The notes under the pieces are model-generated. The model was not told the origin of the DNA. It was given only the letters and a program-made list of their open reading frames with translations, and did no database searches. Shown here in pieces: positions 18,998 to 28,500 of a stretch of 64,000 nucleotides of DNA. Location of the stretch: assembly GCA_037130115.1 (NCBI GenBank), contig JBAXTQ010000003.1, positions 430 through 64,429 of the forward strand. Reading direction: 5' to 3'. Position numbers and translations under genes: made by a program. Numbering within the stretch: the first letter of the stretch is position 1; each line of letters starts with the position of its first letter. This DNA comes from Methylococcaceae bacterium (lineage in GTDB: Bacteria > Pseudomonadota > Gammaproteobacteria > Methylococcales > Methylomonadaceae).

Positions 18998-20314
18998 CTA
19001 TACGACTTTCCCTTCCTTGATAAACTCGCGCAGGATAGCGGTTTCCAACCGTTTAAAGTCGATATAAAGCGATTGGTTGGCCAAAGCTTCTACTGCACAA
19101 TAATGCATGACATTGATGATGCCTGCACCGGTTAGCTCGAAACGGGCTGCTATGTGTTGCCAGTCAATATCAACGGCAATTTCGATTTGCGGGGGAAAGG
19201 CTTTGCACCAGATTTGATAACGTTCTTCTGGCCGGGGCATTGGAAAATGAATGAAGGACTGAAAGCGCCTGGCAAACGCATCGTCTATATTACCGCGTTG
19301 ATTAGTGGCTAATATCACCAGTCCGTTGTAGGTTTCGATGCGCTGTAACAGATAGGCGACTTCCTGGTTAGCATACTTATCATGGGCATCGCGGATGTCG
19401 GTTCGTTTGCCGAAGAGAGCATCGGCTTCGTCAAAAAATAAGATCCAGTTTTTATGCTCGGCTTTATCGAAAAGTTTTGACAGGTTTTTTTCCGTCTCGC
19501 CAATATACTTGGACACTACCCGCGAAAGGTCAATGCGGAATACATCTTTGCCGGTGTATTTACCCAGTAAAGACGCCGTCAACGTTTTACCCGTACCGGG
19601 GGGGCCGTAAAACAGGGCACGGTAACCGGACTTTAACTTTTTGTGCATCCCCCAATCCTGCAACAGGGTATCGTTGTAGGTGATCCAGTTTTCAATTTCT
19701 CGAATATTTCTCAGGGTATTGGGGTGCAACACCAAATCTTCCCATTCCATTTCAGTTTCCAAAGGCTCTGCGGGGAAATCCATGCTAAAACGTGGTTTGC
19801 TGACCACACCAGTGGTCAGCAACTCAATCACCTCAGAATCCGTTATTAACCGCCCGCTCATCAATGGCTCACCTGCGGGCATGGCTTCCAGCCAGAGAAT
19901 ATGTTGTTTGGCAAACCAATGTTCACTGCTTAGCATCGCTTGCACGATTAGCCGTTTTTCCAGATTATCACCTGCCAAAATAAACTGTGCCGTTTCGCCA
20001 GTCGGCAAAATACCTCTATGATGCGTCGCTTTCGCGCCGCCAAATTCAGGAAAATCGCCGCCATCAGGCAGGTATTCAGTAATCAGTTGTGCGAAAAAAT
20101 CAGGTTTTAAACTAGGCGCAAGAGCCAGCATCAACAACACAAATTCTTCATAATCGGGATTGTGAATAGCGATAAAACCTGCCAAGCCAAAATCTTCGTT
20201 ATAAAATTCCAGTGGGGCAACGGTAAAATCATCAGCGTTTTTGTTCAAACGGTTTTTGATGATAGCGTGTAGCCAATCTAGGGCAAGTTGAAGATTGATG
20301 GCGTTATGATTCAT
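18998..20314 (-). CDS. eCIS AAA+ ATPase (Afp15/Pvc15-like)
   Basis: GPPGTGKT, ILFFDEAD, VVSKYIGETEKNL, RYANQEV-like motif; last gene of the eCIS operon. Confidence 0.9.
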   Translation of the reverse strand: MNHNAINLQLALDWLHAIIKNRLNKNADDFTVAPLEFYNEDFGLAGFIAIHNPDYEEFVLLMLALAPSLKPDFFAQLITEYLPDGGDFPEFGGAKATHHRGILPTGETAQFILAGDNLEKRLIVQAMLSSEHWFAKQHILWLEAMPAGEPLMSGRLITDSEVIELLTTGVVSKPRFSMDFPAEPLETEMEWEDLVLHPNTLRNIREIENWITYNDTLLQDWGMHKKLKSGYRALFYGPPGTGKTLTASLLGKYTGKDVFRIDLSRVVSKYIGETEKNLSKLFDKAEHKNWILFFDEADALFGKRTDIRDAHDKYANQEVAYLLQRIETYNGLVILATNQRGNIDDAFARRFQSFIHFPMPRPEERYQIWCKAFPPQIEIAVDIDWQHIAARFELTGAGIINVMHYCAVEALANQSLYIDFKRLETAILREFIKEGKVV

Positions 20315-20344
20315 GGGATTTAAGGTACGCCTAATGTTTAATAT

Positions 20345-23300
20345 TTAATTTACCAATGTATCAATATTTTGTGCTGCAATTTGAGATTCACCAGTAACAA
20401 TACGTCCACTGATTTCTTTTATTAATATATCTTTATCGGATTTTGGTGCCTTTAGCTCTGTAATATCAGTCCAGTAGGCAGATGAAGGGGCTGCAACTGA
20501 TTTCATAGCTTGAACATCACGGTTAAGATCAATTTTGATTTGTTGAATAACAATTTTTCGTTGATCGACCTTAGTTTTACCTATCAGGTTTGGCTCGATT
20601 GTATTAATAAACGATTGTTTTGTTACGTTGCCCTTCCCACCGAAAGTACTACCTGCCATATGACGAATTGAATGTAAATTGATGGCATATCCTTCTTTTG
20701 CTCGTCCTAACGCACGCTTAGCTAATTGACCTGTTTCGGTAAAAGAACCAAATTCGGCTGCCGCTTGTAATATTGCAGCTTGAGGTTGGTGATCAGCTGT
20801 AAAACCATCACCTTTGGGTTTTGGTATTGAGCTATAAGTTCCCGTTAGACCTTCAAGCAAATATTTTTCGCGTGTATTCTTAATTGAAGAATCGTTACCA
20901 ACTAATGCAGACAATGCTCTTGATACACCAACATTTTTCTCCAATAAACTATTTTGCATGGGTTGCAGTGTTGCTTCGTCTTTGCCAGCTTTTTGTGCTA
21001 TTTCAATTTGTGTAATAACAACCTGCGCAGCAGAAATTGCCGTTCTTGCATTGGTAATTTTTGACGCATTATCTGCTTTGAAACTTGGATTCTTCTTCTC
21101 TTTTTCGTTGAGATAAAACTCCAAAAATTGTTCTACTGCCATTGGTTGACTAGCAATTGTGAGTTTTGGAGTATTATTTTCTATTTTAATAAAAATAGAG
21201 TGACTATGACCATCATCATCTTGAAAACTGCTCTTTGAATTAGCCCAATTAAAAACTTTGTTGGCTGTTGATTTGATTGCACCGCCTATCTTCTGCAATA
21301 ATCCCCCCAGCCACGCCACAATCTTATCCAAGCCTTTATCAATCGGAGAACGAATTTTCTTAATGATACCAACGATTTTTTCAGGAATGTCACCTAGCCC
21401 CGCAAATTTAGCTAAGAAAGCGATAATAATGGTTAAGGTATTCGCCATAGTTTGTTCTACTTTTTTGGCAGCACCATCGATTTGACCAGAGGCTATTGCC
21501 GCAATGGAATCGATGAAAGAGGCAACAACAGCAGCAATTTGCTTGATTTTTTCCACGAAGAAAGTGATGGTTTTGTAGATAGCAATAATAGCCTGAATGA
21601 CCGCGCCAGCAGGATTGAGCATACTGACTAATTTGACGACCGCCGCTTTAACGACTTCGGTGGTGATCATTTCGGTGACTTTAGTGATTAATGAGTCTTT
21701 AAGTTCGCTGAGTTCTGTCTTGATTTGTTCCCAAGCGGCAACAGGGCCGTCTTTTACCAAGGTTACCAGAATGCCTGCGGTTTTTTCCAGACCTGTCAAA
21801 ATGGGTTCTGGAATAATTTTGACTAATTTGGTGCGAATGTTTTGCCATGTTAAGCCCAGTATCGACAGCACTAATTTAATGATTTCCATCAAATCAAAGG
21901 ATTTGGGAATATAAACACCAGCCTCACCTAAAGGTCCTGTAATCCATTTAATCAGTGCCGTTTTTAGATGTGTGCCGATATTATTAGCGAACATTTGAAA
22001 ACCCAGTTTTCCCGCACGAACTAGGTTGCCAACAAAACCGATGGGATTTTTGATGATGGTTTGAAACGCGTTTTGGGCTTTTTTGATGTAAGGCACAGCA
22101 TCGGGTGCAACGACGGAAAAAATAATTTCCAGCAGACTAATAACCTGCGCACCTGCCCAATTGAGAAACTCGCCAGCGATACCGAGGAAAGCTTTACCAA
22201 CTTTGCTAAACACACCGACGATAGTGATAACATCTTGCCAAGTAATGGAACTAATCGTTGCAATAATTTGAGCGGGAATCGCCCGAACAAATGCCATCAA
22301 GCCTGCTAACGCCCCTTGAAACCAAGCCCATGCACGCGCAACTGCGTTGCCTTTTTTGATATTTTCCCAGATTTCTTCCTGTCCGATGAGTTTCATGAAA
22401 CCACCGATTAGGGTCTCGGCGGTGCGCGGTACTGGATCGCCAGTAACGGGGTCTTGTCCTAATACAGCTTTGAGTAAATCATAACCTGCCGTGCCTTCTG
22501 CCATTTTAGCTAATGGTCTTAACACGGCTTCTTTAACCAGTTTCATAATGCCAATGGCAACGCCAGCGGCAAAGGAAATAAGTCGCCCAATAGGGTTGGT
22601 GAAAATGCTTTTTGCGCGTTCCCAAACGCCGCTTAAGTCAAATATATCCGTCCAACTCAGTGAATCCATGAAACGCTTTAGACCTGCAACAATATCGGAG
22701 CCAATATCACCCAGTGTGGCGATTTGTTGTTCAACCCATGCACCTGCTTTGGTCAAAACCCCGTGATTATTCAATGCTTGGGTAATGAGTACGCCGCCTG
22801 GAATTAGCTCGATTAATCCTTTAAGGATATTGGCGGCACTACGATCAACGCTACGTCGATTGATTGGATTGAAGCCTAGTAATACCGTCAATAAGGTGAA
22901 ACCAGGAATAAAACCGGCTTTATCGGCAAAATAATCCAGTGCGTCCTGCATACCTAAGCGTTGTATAGATGGTGGTGTCGTGGTGGTGCTGACTTGTGGG
23001 CTACGCTGAACGGCATGACCTTGTTGAATGGTATGCGTGAGTTCATGCGCTAAAAGTTGTTTGCCTTCGCTGGCACCGGGTTGATATTGATCACGGGAGA
23101 AGAAGATGTGGTTTTGATGAGTGAACGCTCTGGCACTTAACTGATTGTTTAAGCTGGCGGATTCTGCATCATGATGGACGCGCACGTTGCTGAAGTCGGC
23201 GTTGAAACGCGGATCCATGTAACTGCGTACATCACTGGACAGCGGTTGACCGCCTGAGGTTTTGTTTTGAATGGCTGATTGTACATTGGCACTCACCGCT

Positions 23301-23680
23301 GGAACGCCAGTTCCGTCTCGTTGCAGTTTTTCTTCGCTAGCAGGGGCTTTTTGAATTTTGTCTTCTTCTTTCTTCTGGATTTTTTCCTCTGGCATTGCCG
23401 CTTTTTGGATTTTATCATCTTCCTTTTTTTGTATTTTCTCTTCTGGTTTACGCTGTATTTTTTCTTCTTTTCCAGCGGCGGGTGTTGGCATACGCATGAT
23501 TTTATAAGCCATGCTGTCGGCTTCTTGTTCGAATTTATCGCCTGGTTTATTAACCGCCAGTTTCATTTGTATAGTAGGCGCGAAAAAATTGCCACCACCT
23601 GCTTTGGCAAAAAAGGGCTGTGCCGCTTGGGTAGCGGTTTTCGATGGGGTGCTTGATGATTTTTCCGCGCTGGTTTTCAT
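20345..23680 (-). CDS. DUF4157 (eCIS-core) polymorphic effector with variable C-terminal toxin-like domain
   Basis: KLAVNKPGDKFEQEAD, GGQPL...F.ADFSNVRVH...ARAFT...HIFF...LLAHELTHTIQQ (DUF4157, HExxH); long helical mid-region; AT-rich C-terminus with DHQP...H...TFGG. Confidence 0.85.
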   Translation of the reverse strand: MKTSAEKSSSTPSKTATQAAQPFFAKAGGGNFFAPTIQMKLAVNKPGDKFEQEADSMAYKIMRMPTPAAGKEEKIQRKPEEKIQKKEDDKIQKAAMPEEKIQKKEEDKIQKAPASEEKLQRDGTGVPAVSANVQSAIQNKTSGGQPLSSDVRSYMDPRFNADFSNVRVHHDAESASLNNQLSARAFTHQNHIFFSRDQYQPGASEGKQLLAHELTHTIQQGHAVQRSPQVSTTTTPPSIQRLGMQDALDYFADKAGFIPGFTLLTVLLGFNPINRRSVDRSAANILKGLIELIPGGVLITQALNNHGVLTKAGAWVEQQIATLGDIGSDIVAGLKRFMDSLSWTDIFDLSGVWERAKSIFTNPIGRLISFAAGVAIGIMKLVKEAVLRPLAKMAEGTAGYDLLKAVLGQDPVTGDPVPRTAETLIGGFMKLIGQEEIWENIKKGNAVARAWAWFQGALAGLMAFVRAIPAQIIATISSITWQDVITIVGVFSKVGKAFLGIAGEFLNWAGAQVISLLEIIFSVVAPDAVPYIKKAQNAFQTIIKNPIGFVGNLVRAGKLGFQMFANNIGTHLKTALIKWITGPLGEAGVYIPKSFDLMEIIKLVLSILGLTWQNIRTKLVKIIPEPILTGLEKTAGILVTLVKDGPVAAWEQIKTELSELKDSLITKVTEMITTEVVKAAVVKLVSMLNPAGAVIQAIIAIYKTITFFVEKIKQIAAVVASFIDSIAAIASGQIDGAAKKVEQTMANTLTIIIAFLAKFAGLGDIPEKIVGIIKKIRSPIDKGLDKIVAWLGGLLQKIGGAIKSTANKVFNWANSKSSFQDDDGHSHSIFIKIENNTPKLTIASQPMAVEQFLEFYLNEKEKKNPSFKADNASKITNARTAISAAQVVITQIEIAQKAGKDEATLQPMQNSLLEKNVGVSRALSALVGNDSSIKNTREKYLLEGLTGTYSSIPKPKGDGFTADHQPQAAILQAAAEFGSFTETGQLAKRALGRAKEGYAINLHSIRHMAGSTFGGKGNVTKQSFINTIEPNLIGKTKVDQRKIVIQQIKIDLNRDVQAMKSVAAPSSAYWTDITELKAPKSDKDILIKEISGRIVTGESQIAAQNIDTLVN

Positions 23681-23702: not shown

Positions 23703-25529
23703 TTAATAGTTCCACTCTACCCACAGCATTCGTTGCGTCCAAGGCAGTTTTATCATGGATATGCCCCAAGGGAGTTGATTTAACAGTATATCAACAGTTT
23801 TGTTTTCAACTTGCAGCAACCAGTCGCCATCATCACGCACCGATAATTTGCCGAATCTGAGTAGAAACTCGCCGCGTAAACCATCGATACTGGTGTTGCG
23901 TAACGCATCCCAATGACGAATGACGGCGTTAAGCAGGGCTTCGGCTTCTTCTATTTCGGAGTCGCTTAGTTCCATATCGGATTCAACAGGTGTGTCTAAC
24001 GGAATATTGCACAGAATTTTGGACAAAGTCAGTTCATATTCGGGAGCAATGCGTACTCCTGTGGTTAAAAAATGTAGCAGACAAAGAGCGCGTTCGGGCT
24101 GTATGAGTTGGTCTTCTTCGGCAACGCCTAAGGCGGTAAAAAATTGCGGCAAAAAAGGGTGTAATAAAATCAGCCCTGAGTTTTCGATATAAATACCGCC
24201 TTTAATATCGGCGGCTTGGAATGCTGTTTTTGTGGTTGGTAGTTTTTTTTGCAAATCTAACGATTCGTTGGTATCAGTCTGTTTAAAAGGTTTTACCGAA
24301 TCGGTCATTGGCAAGTTTTCTTGCTCATGGTCAATAGTAAGCTTATTTGTTGAATCTGAGGGCTGAATGATAGGTGCGCTAGATAGCGGTTTTAGTTTTG
24401 GTGAATGTGTGCTTGTTATAGCCGCTGACCAATGACGTGCTAATAAATTTTCTAACGCAGCTGTCTTAACCACCAATGCTTGCCAAGCTTCGGCAATAAC
24501 GGCATTTTCAGTCACGGTTTTGCCCGTTGCAATAAAAGTAAATACGGTTTCCCATAATTGTTGTTCAAATTGTTTCACCACGACAGGAGGCGCGTCTGAA
24601 TTTTGCAATAGCACTAAAATAGCGACTATGACTTTTTGGCTTTCGGGTGAAAGTTGCGTTACTAAATTAGTCATTAATGACGGTGAAAACTGACTGACTA
24701 AGCGTTTTCTAGTTGTTTCTGAGGCTAATAGCGTATGAATAATTACAGGGTGAGTATCAAGTAGCGCGTTTTCCAATGTGTGTTGTTGGCTGTTCGATAG
24801 ATTCAGTGTCTGCCACGCTTCGGTAATAATAGCGGTTTCGCTTAGGGTTTTACCCGTTGCGATGAAAGCAAATAAAGTTTCCCATAGTTGTTGTTCAAAT
24901 TGTTTCACCGCTGTATCTGGGTTTTGCTGTACCGACAATATTGCGGTGATGATTTTTTTGCCTTCGAGCGAAAAGTTATCCAGTAAGGTGGTCATAAACA
25001 GCGGTAAAAATTGCCTAACCAGGCGTTTTCTTGCGGTTGGCGCGTTTAATGTACTGAGAATAAGACCTTTAGGAATAGTTGCTACGCCGTCTTGCCAAGC
25101 ATCGAGTAGAGTCTGTTCAAAACTTTTGTTTTTTGTCAGTGTTATCGACCAAGGTAAACGCCCAGTATTTAAAAAATAAATCAAGGCTTCGGCTAGGCTT
25201 TGTTGGCTCGTTTTATGGCGAATGTTGTCAGTCGATACTGAGGGTGAACGAGTAAGCTGTTCACGAAGTTTTTTTTCAATAGCCTCTGCAACGACTGCGG
25301 TTAAGTTTTGTTCCCAATGCTCCAGTGTTAGCGCACCCGCATCAATATCCAAGCGGTCAATAGACCAGCTTTCAGAGTCTGCAAATCGATTAAATACTTT
25401 TTCCAGTGTAGGTAATAAATCATCCTGACACCATCCTGATAATCGATTTTGTAATAGCCAAGCATCCGATTCCACACCGTTAAATTCGATGTGGAGGTGT
25501 TGCTGTTGGATGGTGTGTTGTGAGGTCAT
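23703..25529 (-). CDS. CIS tape-measure protein (Afp14/Pvc14-like)
   Basis: C-terminal IENSGLILLHPFL...HWDALRNTSIDGLRGEFLLR.G...LPWGISMIKLPW...VEW. Likely start MTSQH at 25529. Confidence 0.85.
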   Translation of the reverse strand: MTSQHTIQQQHLHIEFNGVESDAWLLQNRLSGWCQDDLLPTLEKVFNRFADSESWSIDRLDIDAGALTLEHWEQNLTAVVAEAIEKKLREQLTRSPSVSTDNIRHKTSQQSLAEALIYFLNTGRLPWSITLTKNKSFEQTLLDAWQDGVATIPKGLILSTLNAPTARKRLVRQFLPLFMTTLLDNFSLEGKKIITAILSVQQNPDTAVKQFEQQLWETLFAFIATGKTLSETAIITEAWQTLNLSNSQQHTLENALLDTHPVIIHTLLASETTRKRLVSQFSPSLMTNLVTQLSPESQKVIVAILVLLQNSDAPPVVVKQFEQQLWETVFTFIATGKTVTENAVIAEAWQALVVKTAALENLLARHWSAAITSTHSPKLKPLSSAPIIQPSDSTNKLTIDHEQENLPMTDSVKPFKQTDTNESLDLQKKLPTTKTAFQAADIKGGIYIENSGLILLHPFLPQFFTALGVAEEDQLIQPERALCLLHFLTTGVRIAPEYELTLSKILCNIPLDTPVESDMELSDSEIEEAEALLNAVIRHWDALRNTSIDGLRGEFLLRFGKLSVRDDGDWLLQVENKTVDILLNQLPWGISMIKLPWTQRMLWVEWNY

Positions 25530-25540
25530 TGGAATTAGTT

Positions 25541-28500
25541 TTAGCCAAGTTTGATGATGTCTTCCTGTATAAATCGGCATCCGTCCTTGGTGAAAGCGGC
25601 GAGTCGAATAGTCTTGATGTTAGGTTCACGCTGGGTAAAACTAAAGCTGGCTCGTTGACCGTTTGACATTGCTGGATTACCATCCTGCACTTCCCAAAGA
25701 TAAGTGACTGGTTCGACACTGCCCGATGGTTTTACATCGAGAATTACAGATGGATTAGATGGAGTAGTCATCTGCTGGATTATTTCCAGTTTCAAATCTA
25801 ATTCGTTAGGACACTGCGGCTCATCTATGCTTTTCGGATTGCATTTATTGACTTTGACCGTGTTAAATGCAGGTGTTTTAACAGTCATCACAACTTGTCC
25901 ACGTTGTGTTATAACAATAGTACTGTCAATAGGTGTGACCGTTATGGCTGTTATAGAGCCGATAAATCGTAGTGATGGAAGCGGCCAAGAGTATCCAAAT
26001 TCAAACGGTAGGCACTCGAAATATTCAATCCACCATGTATCCATAAAGCCTGATTTTGACGGTTCGTAATTAAACTTCAGGCAATCGACTCCGCCTGTAC
26101 GTTCAATAATCAGCTTATTTATGATGTCTGCAAAACTATTTCCGTCTCCTCCAACTTCTGCCAAAACTTTCTGAACTTTTGCTGACATATCAATATTATT
26201 GCCTTGCGGATATTCAAAGGTGAGATGAGCCTGAAAATTTTCTTTTATATTGGGCAAAGAGAAGTAATAGCCGCGTCGCAAGGCAATACCATCACAGGGC
26301 AAATCGCAACAGTTATGTGAGATTTCCATATTGGCAGGGCATTGATTGCTGTCCAGCACATTGATGGAAACACCAGATTTGCTAGCGATTGAATCCGTGG
26401 TGTAACTATTGCCATCAATAGATGCGTCATTGATCGTATAAGGCGGTTTACCTCCGCTGAGCATGAGGGTCGCTGTATAGGTTTGTAAATCATCACTGCA
26501 CTTAAAATCTATGCTGTCGAATGTAATGGCTGATGTAACTGTGATGGTTTGCGGTAGTGATTCCGTGCCGCCAGCGTCACGAATGGTTAAGGTATATTCA
26601 CCGGCTGGCAAGGATATTTCATTCAATACTTGATATTCATGCTCATTAATTTTGATTTCATAAGGTGACAAACCACCTTTTGGGATAATGTTCAGAGCCG
26701 AGAAACTATCCGTATTAGGGCAGCCTGTTGTTACATTAAAGGTGACATAGGTCTGGATAAACTCGATTCCCGCCGTGCATGAATGACTGTCTACCACGGT
26801 GATACTGCCTCCCATGCCATTGGCAATTGGAACGGTAGTATATTGACTATCGACTACTGTTTCGTTGCCGGCATCATTGACCGTATAAGGCGGTGTGCCG
26901 CCCTCGATATTGAGCGTTGCCGTGTAGGTATCAGAAACTTCATCGTATTGAAATAATGGTTCGCTAATAATAATGGGCGCGGCAACCGTGATAGTTTGTG
27001 GAATCGATTCTGATCCTTCAGCATCACGAATCGTTAAGGTATGTTCACTAACGCCTAGTGTTAGCGTTTCACTTAATGGTTGACATTCTCCGTCATCAAT
27101 CTTGATGATGTAGGGTGACAAAGACAAATTGCCTTGTAGAATAATATTGACTGGCGCACCATCGGCATTGGCGCAGCCAATTGTCACGCTGAATGTTGGC
27201 TGTACACAGTGATGGGTAATTTCTATTTCGGCAGCGCATAGCCTGCTGTCCAGCACGTTGATAGTTCTGGCTGTTCCGTTGTCGATTGAATCCGTGGTGT
27301 AAACGTTTCCAGTGATGGTTATTTCGTTGACCGTATAAGGCGGTGTGCCACCGACGATATTAAAGGTAGCACGATAGGCACTGGTATCTGCACTGCATTG
27401 GTAAGTCGGCACACTAAAAGTAATGGGCGATATAATCGCGATGGTTTGCGGCAGCGATTCTGTACCTTCAGCATCACAAATTCTTAAGGTATGAGTGCCA
27501 ACTGCCAATGATACCGTTGAGCTTAGTGGCCGGTAATCCTGTTTGTCAATTTTAAGATCATAAGGTGGCAAGCCACCTTTTACGGTAAGGCTGACGATGG
27601 CAAATCCTTGTTCGTTGGTGCAGCCGATTATTACAAAGAGCTTGGGCAGTATTTTCGGCAACACAAACTGCACAGCCTCACAAACTGAATTACACTGGTA
27701 GGGTAGATAAAAATCCGCAATGACGGTGTTATCAGCAAACTCTTTGACTATTTGAGTGATGATGTCGGGGGTAATGTCTTGCGCGTCAACTGCAAGTTTA
27801 GGTGCTGCGTGATAAACAAGAATGAATGTTCCGCCTAAAGGAACGCCCGCTTTATGCTGAATGCCTGGATTGCTTTGCAGGAAGTGATTAAGGAACAGCT
27901 TTTGTTTTATTTCACGAACACGGCGTAGATATTCATCGTAAAGAACTTTAAACGCATCGGTACGACAGGCGTATAGGATGGCTTCAAGACGGTCATCTAT
28001 TTCTTCACCCGATGTTATAAAATCTTTAGTAACAGCGGCGAGTTCTCTCACGTTAATAGCGTTTTCTGCTTCATCTTCCACACCAGCAAGTCTTTTTGCA
28101 TAGTATTGTTCGATTTCACGCTCAATAGCTGTCGTTATATCGATTAAATCTTTGTGTATTTTTTCAAAGCTATCATAATTAAATTTTGCAAGATCATCAG
28201 ATACAGCATTATAAATTTTTGAGAGATACATAACTGGATATATATAAACAATATTCTCTTTCCCTGGCCCCCTATTTCTCTCATCGATTAGATCACCGAT
28301 GATTATCCAAGCAGGTATATCATGCTCTCTGCCGAGCGCAATATCCGCATCCTCAAGGAATCGACCCACAGTCATAGGTGTTACTTCATAATCTGGAGTT
28401 TGTTTAACCAGTAGCGGTAATATTGGCTTAGTCTTAGTAGTAACGGGAGACTCCTGTTCATAGGGCAAATCATAAAAATACTGTACTTCTTTGCACAAAA

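Follow-up and report, generated by a model that had tools for sequence, protein, structure and literature searches.

We analysed a 64,000-nucleotide stretch of DNA (referred to below as the window) from a Methylococcaceae bacterium (GenBank assembly GCA_037130115.1, contig JBAXTQ010000003.1, positions 430 to 64,429 of the forward strand), and focused on P0001, the gene of a protein with a DUF4157 head that lies in an extracellular contractile injection system (eCIS) cluster. We consider it likely that P0001 is a polymorphic eCIS cargo toxin whose tail has been swapped for an adaptor and an uncatalogued domain, most likely a His-dependent DNase. The acquisition of this tail by C-terminal exchange, already proposed in a first-pass annotation of the region, is as firmly established as sequence data allow, because homology breakpoints, the phylogeny of the conserved body and a compositional island all point to it. 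The parts of the locus concerned are, in window coordinates:

20345..23680, minus strand: P0001, DUF4157/eCIS_core cargo toxin gene, 1111 residues (open reading frame and Pfam)
21302..22960, minus strand: conserved helical body, residues 241-793 (more than 2077 homologues)
21302..21355, minus strand: demarcation motif KIRSPIDKGLDKIVAWLG, residues 776-793 (column conservation, 120 sequences)
20159..21304, minus strand: replaced cassette or low-GC island, made up of the toxin tail, the spacer and the ATPase gene's 5' end (homology breaks and GC content)
20315..20344, minus strand: spacer of 30 nucleotides between toxin stop and ATPase start (direct reading of the sequence)
18998..20314, minus strand: AAA+ ATPase of the Afp15/Pvc15/Alg15 type, presumed cargo loader (Pfam AAA, E 8.4e-30)

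A search with the body (residues 241-818) returned more than 2077 homologues, the best 120 of which are 74-96% identical and are spread across phyla. In these 120 relatives column conservation stays at 0.9 or above up to ...KIRxPIDKGLDKIVAWLG (residues 776-793) and is 0.2-0.5 thereafter, and everything after the motif ...PIDKGLDKIVAWLG (residue ~793) differs among close relatives. The closest ones, up to 95-97% identical, diverge fully at residues 794-802: P0222 shares 95% identity with P0001 over residues 1-798 and is unrelated beyond, and P0223 does so up to residue 802 and then continues into an Ntox15 tail. Clustering sorted the tails of the 119 nearest body relatives into at least 24 types: 38 tails belong to an Ntox15 cluster, 41 to an unannotated one, and further clusters include Endonuclea_NS_2-like and GH-E tails, while 0 of the 119 are of the window's type. 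A comparison of the C-termini of orthologues, which the first-pass annotation had recommended, thus found them to be anything but invariant. Among proteins that do bear the window's tail the best body identity is 64%, versus 74-96% for the best 120 matches of the body search. The view of the tail as an invariant, vertically inherited domain was dropped, since in the body search much closer relatives bear other tails.

At the DNA level a metagenomic contig (L006) is 88% identical to the window down to position 21276 and then diverges; its continuation encodes an Ntox15-like tail, and the gene after that is for immunity of the Tdi1 type (T6SS_Tdi1_C, E 4e-7). With G022, a complete genome from the same genus, homology covers two blocks, 23680-21305 and 20158-18999; between them G022 encodes a different tail and carries a YbjN-like gene of 158 residues, at a place where the window encodes its own tail and lacks any additional gene. 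The non-homologous block, at about 20159-21304, coincides with the low-GC island. In a tree of 55 bodies P0001 falls, at branch supports of 96-100%, within a clade in which the 34 other proteins bear tails of other types; it is the sister of P0222 and P0223. An approximately unbiased test rejects a single clade of bodies that carry the window's terminal domain (p 0.004).

The AT-rich character of the tail, noted at first pass, was borne out: GC content is 0.449 over residues 1-813 and 0.363 over residues 814-1111, and GC content at third codon positions (GC3) falls from about 0.41 in the body to 0.218 in the tail. The change starts near residue 800, about 20 residues ahead of the GHSH motif, and GC content is 0.32-0.42 throughout 20200-21300. 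A GC3 of 0.218 over 293 codons belongs to the lowest 0.2% of this genome (3 of 1464 windows in long open reading frames), and the C-terminal composition drop of P0001 is the most extreme among the 369 long frames. AT-richer exchangeable tips are familiar in Rhs and contact-dependent inhibition (CDI) systems.

The exchange seems to extend beyond the toxin gene. Residues 1-80 of the ATPase (20075-20314) are 38-50% identical to the G022 orthologue, against 80-100% for the remainder, and the GC3 of the ATPase gene is 0.38-0.40 over its first 100 codons and 0.5-0.6 later. The swap probably took in the start of the ATPase gene too, and the cargo-recognition end of the ATPase may have been swapped along with the toxin tail. 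Joint transfer of this N-terminus and the tail from a Methylobacter-like donor found no support, the N-terminus being equally far from the L001 locus (33-45%) and from G022.

A search with the tail only (the last 293 residues) gave 83 full-length proteins, and 208 clusters at 50% identity, from many phyla; the best match is annotated as Methylobacter sp. In these matches the domain is always C-terminal and always stands behind a similar helical body, body and tail identities tracking each other. It is also present on shorter proteins that have neither DUF4157 nor the body. The tail of P0001, 310 residues that follow a helical body of 560, was divided as follows:

20873..21280, minus strand: adaptor or pre-toxin module, residues 801-936 (AlphaFold2 secondary structure; 25-37% identity to equivalents)
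20348..20872, minus strand: predicted terminal toxin domain, or DHQPQ domain, residues 937-1111, 175 residues (AlphaFold2 confidence 92.7 and 0.88, as explained below)
20780..20794, minus strand: candidate catalytic centre, invariant D963-H964-Q965-P966(-Q967), located where a beta-strand ends (alignments of 83, 36 and 16 sequences)
20660..20680, minus strand: motif N1001-L-H1003-S-I-R1006-H1007, a strand and the start of a helix (alignments)

AlphaFold2 models were built with the alignment of 83 sequences and reached a predicted local distance difference test score (pLDDT) of 90.2 for residues 819-1111 and of 92.7 for residues 928-1111, the latter with a predicted template modelling score (pTM) of 0.88. 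The modelled domain (residues 937-1111) consists of three short strands and about nine helices. The motifs quoted at first pass lie at, or within a few bases of, where they had been placed: FQDDDGHSHS spans residues 819-828 (21197-21226), AINLHSIRH residues 999-1007 and STFGGKGN residues 1011-1018, and FTADHQPQ spans residues 960-967 (20780-20803), enclosing the interval 20783-20794 given for it earlier. Conservation was judged in alignments of 83 sequences, of 36 and of a deliberately diverse set of 16. Y940, E943, G944, D963, H964, Q965, P966, I1000, R1006, G1010, T1012, D1055, D1072 and E1098 are invariant, H1007 is nearly so, and the domain of the window retains every invariant residue. 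Q967 is replaced by His in two distant members, N1001 varies (Leu, Met, Val), and H1003 varies among distant members (Ser, Tyr, Gln).

In Foldseek searches against the PDB a single match stood above background in both runs, chain B of 9J9W (probability 1.00, E 0.04 and 0.01, TMq 0.28/0.42, TMt 0.50/0.49), the next match having an E-value of 0.9 or worse. This entry is a complex of the C-terminal DNase domain of TseN with the immunity protein TsiN; the toxin domain has seven helices, one 3-10 helix and a three-stranded sheet, depends on H254 and was reported to have no database homologues (PMC12574953). As TsiN has a seven-stranded sheet, and as the element count of TseN fits our model, we infer that chain B is the toxin. 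H964, which is invariant, and H1007, which is nearly so, are candidate counterparts of H254 to judge from the alignments. The annotatable allelic tails of the relatives are nucleases. A His-dependent nuclease is thus plausible but unproven as the function of the domain.

The more specific proposal of the first-pass annotation, a His-Me-finger or HNH-like nuclease, fared less well. The order of a strand with the DH pair (residues 960-964), a strand with N1001 and a helix with R1006 and H1007 fits that of a beta-beta-alpha-metal core, in which a catalytic His ends strand 1 and a conserved Asn or His binds the metal; however, two helices are inserted between the strands here, and N1001 is not conserved. 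The tail has no Pfam match at E up to 10, none of 36 members matched an HNH or EndoVII family, and no HNH, EndoVII or other His-Me-finger structure was among the Foldseek matches. Membership in this group is not supported, because Pfam, PDB sequences and Foldseek gave no match to it and because the Asn of the D-H...N...H set is Leu, Met or Val in distant members. What stands of the proposal is a plausible His-dependent nuclease, with a weak structural neighbour in the DNase TseN. Profile searches detected neither TseN nor any nuclease, Foldseek against the viral structures of BFVD returned nothing, and a profile search for short or named carriers of the domain retrieved 'hypothetical' fragments only, with no TseN-like protein and none with a type VI secretion system (T6SS) annotation. 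Two other candidates were set aside. A Protein A profile match arose by summation of repeats over a three-helix segment, each repeat having an independent E-value of about 1-2, and BaCT (PMC7073777), which in Bacteroidetes is a PD-(D/E)xK DNase joined to DUF4157, was excluded since the tail has no invariant (D/E)xK.

The segment in front of the DHQPQ domain, which contains the F-x-D-x-x-GHSH sequence, is modelled over residues 819-936 as a beta-hairpin (F-x-D-x-x-G-x-x-H...L-x-I-A-S-x-P) that leads into a long helical hairpin. Proteins with different terminal domains share it at 25-37% identity over the corresponding region, and for that reason we regard it as an adaptor rather than a part of the warhead. 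At least three unrelated adaptor types follow the junction motif among the body relatives, each combined with several terminal domains: type A, that of the window, with the G-x-x-H beta-hairpin; type B, AQAGLPxDPNERLxLG...IKxRYGF...INP; and type C, which is Lys-rich, ...KYKL.S..LE...INP.

The absence of an adjacent immunity gene, the remaining claim of the first-pass annotation, was confirmed. The toxin stop codon TAA occupies 20345-20347 and the ATG of the ATPase 20314-20312; no immunity-sized frame fits, because the gap between them is exactly 30 nucleotides, and the only frames overlapping the tail are antisense ones of 52-53 residues. Elsewhere the situation differs. We collected 41 genome loci with this tail type from many phyla, 37 of them with enough downstream sequence. 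In nine of the 37 (L024, L026, L027, L030, L031, L038, L042, L043 and L046) a same-strand gene of about 190 residues starts between 19 nucleotides before and 93 nucleotides after the toxin stop; these genes belong to a single family, whose core reads P-[IL]-V-[WY]-L-x-[SG]-EG and which is found in several phyla. Three other loci (L008, L010 and L028) have an unrelated protein of about 200 residues with two N-terminal hydrophobic helices. Six loci have an AAA ATPase gene downstream, directly after the toxin gene in five, which is also the arrangement in the window, and after the ~190-residue gene in L038. The loci with the ~190-residue family carry more distant tails, 29-42% identical to that of the window. 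For both families, tblastn and hidden Markov model searches of the six-frame translation found no homologue in the genome of the window, whose assembly is 92% complete.

These candidate immunity genes at distant loci suggest that the DHQPQ domain would probably be harmful to bacterial cells also. If so, sequestration or timing of expression explains the missing gene better than a strictly eukaryotic target. Of the two options offered at first pass, a toxin aimed at eukaryotes or one inactive or sequestered until delivery, the candidate genes favour the latter. In the G022 locus the YbjN-family gene (L058, 15621-16097; Pfam E 3.6e-9) lies between the toxin tail and the ATPase gene and may encode a chaperone or, alternatively, a candidate immunity protein for this allele.

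The setting of the gene is that of an injection system cargo. According to Pfam a complete eCIS/Afp-like cluster occupies 18998-48016 of the window on the minus strand, with Pvc16_N, sheath, two gp19-type tubes, CIS_tube, a VgrG-like spike, gp25, baseplate J, a fibre-like protein with SprB repeats, CIS_TMP, eCIS_core and AAA. P0001 sits between the CIS_TMP tape-measure gene (23703-25580) and the AAA ATPase gene, and the sheath, tube, spike and baseplate genes are upstream of it. The source genome, a 4.4-Mb draft of 44.5% GC, holds a single DUF4157 match, and no orphan cassettes are present in it. The last ~140 residues of the tape-measure protein are 74-86% identical to those of its relatives and the remainder 25-54%, and its length of 625 residues differs from the 645 and 495 residues of relatives. 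The N-terminal 800 residues of P0001, strongly conserved in thousands of homologues, comprise two further features besides the body:

23246..23680, minus strand: Lys/Glu-rich N-terminal region, residues 1-145, presumed disordered loading sequence (composition; function by analogy with Cgo1/Cgo2)
23015..23245, minus strand: eCIS_core (DUF4157) zincin-like domain, residues 146-222, with HELTH at residues 212-216 (PF13699, E 1.3e-29)

The HELTH sequence has the HExxH form expected of a DUF4157 head. The Lys/Glu-rich leader contains five EEKIQKK-like repeats, arranged in tandem (EEKIQ(K/R)K) at residues 68-117 (23330-23480); their coding sequence is strongly A-rich, and the plus-strand AT skew goes down to -0.64. 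The body has 51% hydrophobic residues and amphipathic helices whose hydropathy is borderline for transmembrane segments, and it matches Tape_meas_lam_C weakly (E 0.0096, below the Pfam cut-off). Its identity of 74-97% extends across Proteobacteria, Bacteroidota, Nitrospirota, Planctomycetota and Chlorobiota, with very short branches, which implies a recent spread of the eCIS cargo scaffold between phyla.

In the mechanism that we propose, the leader would be recognised by the ATPase and the cargo fed into the lumen of the tube, in the manner of AlgoCIS Cgo1 and Cgo2. Contraction would then expel the cargo into the target cell, where the amphipathic body may aid membrane passage. The terminal domain would act there as a hydrolytic toxin, most likely a TseN-related His-dependent DNase, with a putative active site formed by E943, D963, H964, Q965, R1006, H1007 and T1012. 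An immunity gene would be unneeded if the toxin were kept unfolded or sequestered, or were made only in cells about to lyse and release particles.

Several observations weigh against this reading. Neither the single tail sequence nor the profiles A1, A2 and A5 found a meaningful Pfam, NCBIfam or PDB sequence match, or any link by sequence to a nuclease or toxin family. The resemblance to TseN is weak, with a root-mean-square deviation of about 8 Å, 17% identity over 168 columns and template modelling (TM) scores of 0.42-0.50, and the identity of chain B comes from secondary-structure content only. The SUKH label that can be put on the ~190-residue family is sub-threshold (two of seven members, SMI1_KNR4/SUKH_6, E 0.005-0.04), and about two thirds of the 37 loci have neither recurring downstream family. 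Body and tail trees of 50 full-length proteins agree in their major clades, and in basal lineages tail and body were inherited together over long periods, which would also fit a conserved non-toxic role. It is conceivable, if rather unlikely, that the tail is an enzymatic toxin other than a nuclease, modifying for instance protein, lipid or nucleotides, and that it resembles TseN through a shared helical scaffold. The lack of a nuclease family match by sequence, TM-scores no higher than 0.50 and the unconserved Asn at the expected metal site all suit this explanation, as do the many activities found among eCIS toxins (PMC8213781). Against it, TseN is the sole PDB neighbour that leaves the background (E 0.01 versus at least 0.9 for the next), and those allelic tails for which an annotation is possible are nucleases. 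SUKH-type immunity proteins, for which the matches here are weak, are reported to pair typically with nucleic-acid-targeting toxins (Zhang et al. 2011), which also speaks for a nuclease.

We regard as quite improbable that the tail is a non-toxic part of a tape-measure-like cargo, such as an anchor in the lumen, spike or cap or a membrane-translocation module, and that the swap was a homologous replacement between lineages. The agreement of the trees and the tracking identities would be expected in that case, the tail is mostly helical, many loci including the window lack an immunity candidate, and for Tme, the DUF4157 protein of Streptomyces, binding to baseplate and spike proteins has been described (PMC11126660). 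However, the same polymorphic position holds Ntox15 with Tdi1 and other nuclease tails in relatives, the domain occurs on short proteins without head and body, its invariant Asp, His, Gln, Arg and Glu look catalytic rather than structural, and a cognate-looking gene follows it in nine loci, with a second family in three more. It is more improbable still, to the point of being hardly credible, that the AT-richness is a selected trait of this tail type, serving, for instance, to slow down translation or to keep the mRNA weakly structured at its 3' end, instead of a mark of foreign origin. Tails of this type do have a lower GC3 than their own bodies in 34 of 35 loci (mean difference 0.11, in genomes with a GC3 of 0.38-0.93), but the drop in the window (0.20) is nearly twice the family mean and carries on through the spacer into the ATPase gene's 5' end. 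GC3 is low in the Ntox15 tail of L006 too (0.29 versus 0.42), as is usual for exchangeable toxin tips, although not in the G022 tail, and the case for exchange would in any event remain, as it is based on homology breakpoints and phylogeny.

Beyond the reading of P0001 as a cargo toxin with an exchanged, probably DNase-bearing tail, we tentatively put forward a broader possibility, which we hold with clearly less confidence. The DHQPQ domain and TseN might form one unrecognised superfamily of His-dependent DNase warheads shared by T6SS and eCIS and countered by at least two unrelated immunity families, one SUKH-like and one of small two-helix membrane proteins; alleles free of immunity genes would be safe as the ATPase-loaded cargo stays unfolded in the tube lumen until injection. 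If the domain were a TseN-like DNase, the T6SS and eCIS arsenals would be linked, and a compact warhead together with its loading scaffold would be at hand for engineered injection systems.

Proteins in which a DUF4157 head is followed by a long linker and a variable toxin at the C-terminus have been described in eCIS (PMC8213781; PMC11297309). P0001 resembles them in its HExxH head, very long conserved linker, variable toxin end and position at the operon's 3' end. They often have no recognisable immunity gene, as is the case here, and the missing gene touches the question raised by Geller et al. 2021 (PMC8213781) of how producers tolerate their own eCIS toxins. Unlike them, P0001 has a terminal domain that belongs to no catalogued toxin family. 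By architecture it is also close to AlgoCIS Cgo1 and Cgo2 of Algoriphagus machipongonensis, which are located in the tube lumen (PMC8894135) and whose loading needs the N-terminal domain and the AAA+ ATPase Alg15 (preprint 10.64898/2026.05.27.728243): a disordered N-terminus, DUF4157 and a large C-terminal region (Cgo2 has 1228 residues) are common to them, and P0001 likewise adjoins tape-measure and AAA+ ATPase genes, so that similar loading would be expected by analogy. The tail of Cgo1 differs in being a predicted metalloprotease.

TseN, an antifungal and antibacterial T6SS DNase of Acidovorax citrulli, was described as a His-dependent enzyme (H254) and called a new effector class (PMC12574953). 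Its seven helices and three-stranded sheet give an element count similar to that of the DHQPQ domain. Unlike P0001 it travels by VgrG/PAAR of the T6SS and has TsiN encoded downstream, and no sequence similarity between the two was detected. Tme, from the contractile injection system (CIS) of Streptomyces davawensis, resembles P0001 in its DUF4157 head, in a long region that is hydrophobic or coiled and in a faint similarity to tape-measure proteins; it has a nuclease-type C-terminal warhead, and its gene is syntenic in CIS clusters across phyla (PMC11126660). At 2247 residues or more it is about twice as long as P0001, ends in an EndA-like DRGH/H-N-N nuclease and acts in the developmental cell death of its producer. 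The tail of P0001 has no Endonuclease_NS match in Pfam.

What is new here is one exchange event mapped at nucleotide resolution, with its junction motif, its low-GC cassette and the alternative alleles of close relatives, and a widespread unannotated warhead domain with a possible link to TseN and two candidate immunity families. Polymorphic toxins headed by DUF4157 or PVC-metallopeptidase domains were reportedly described by Zhang et al. (2012, Biol Direct 7:18). In Rhs, CdiA and MafB proteins C-terminal displacement takes place behind a demarcation motif, for instance VENN or PxxxxDPxGL. P0001 has the same conserved delivery part, end motif and exchangeable AT-richer tip, but it would be delivered in an eCIS tube lumen, its genome has no orphan cassettes and its allele no immunity gene, which in those three systems is often the next gene. 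The swappable-toxin layout is thus already known, and P0001 is a fresh example of it and not a fresh principle.

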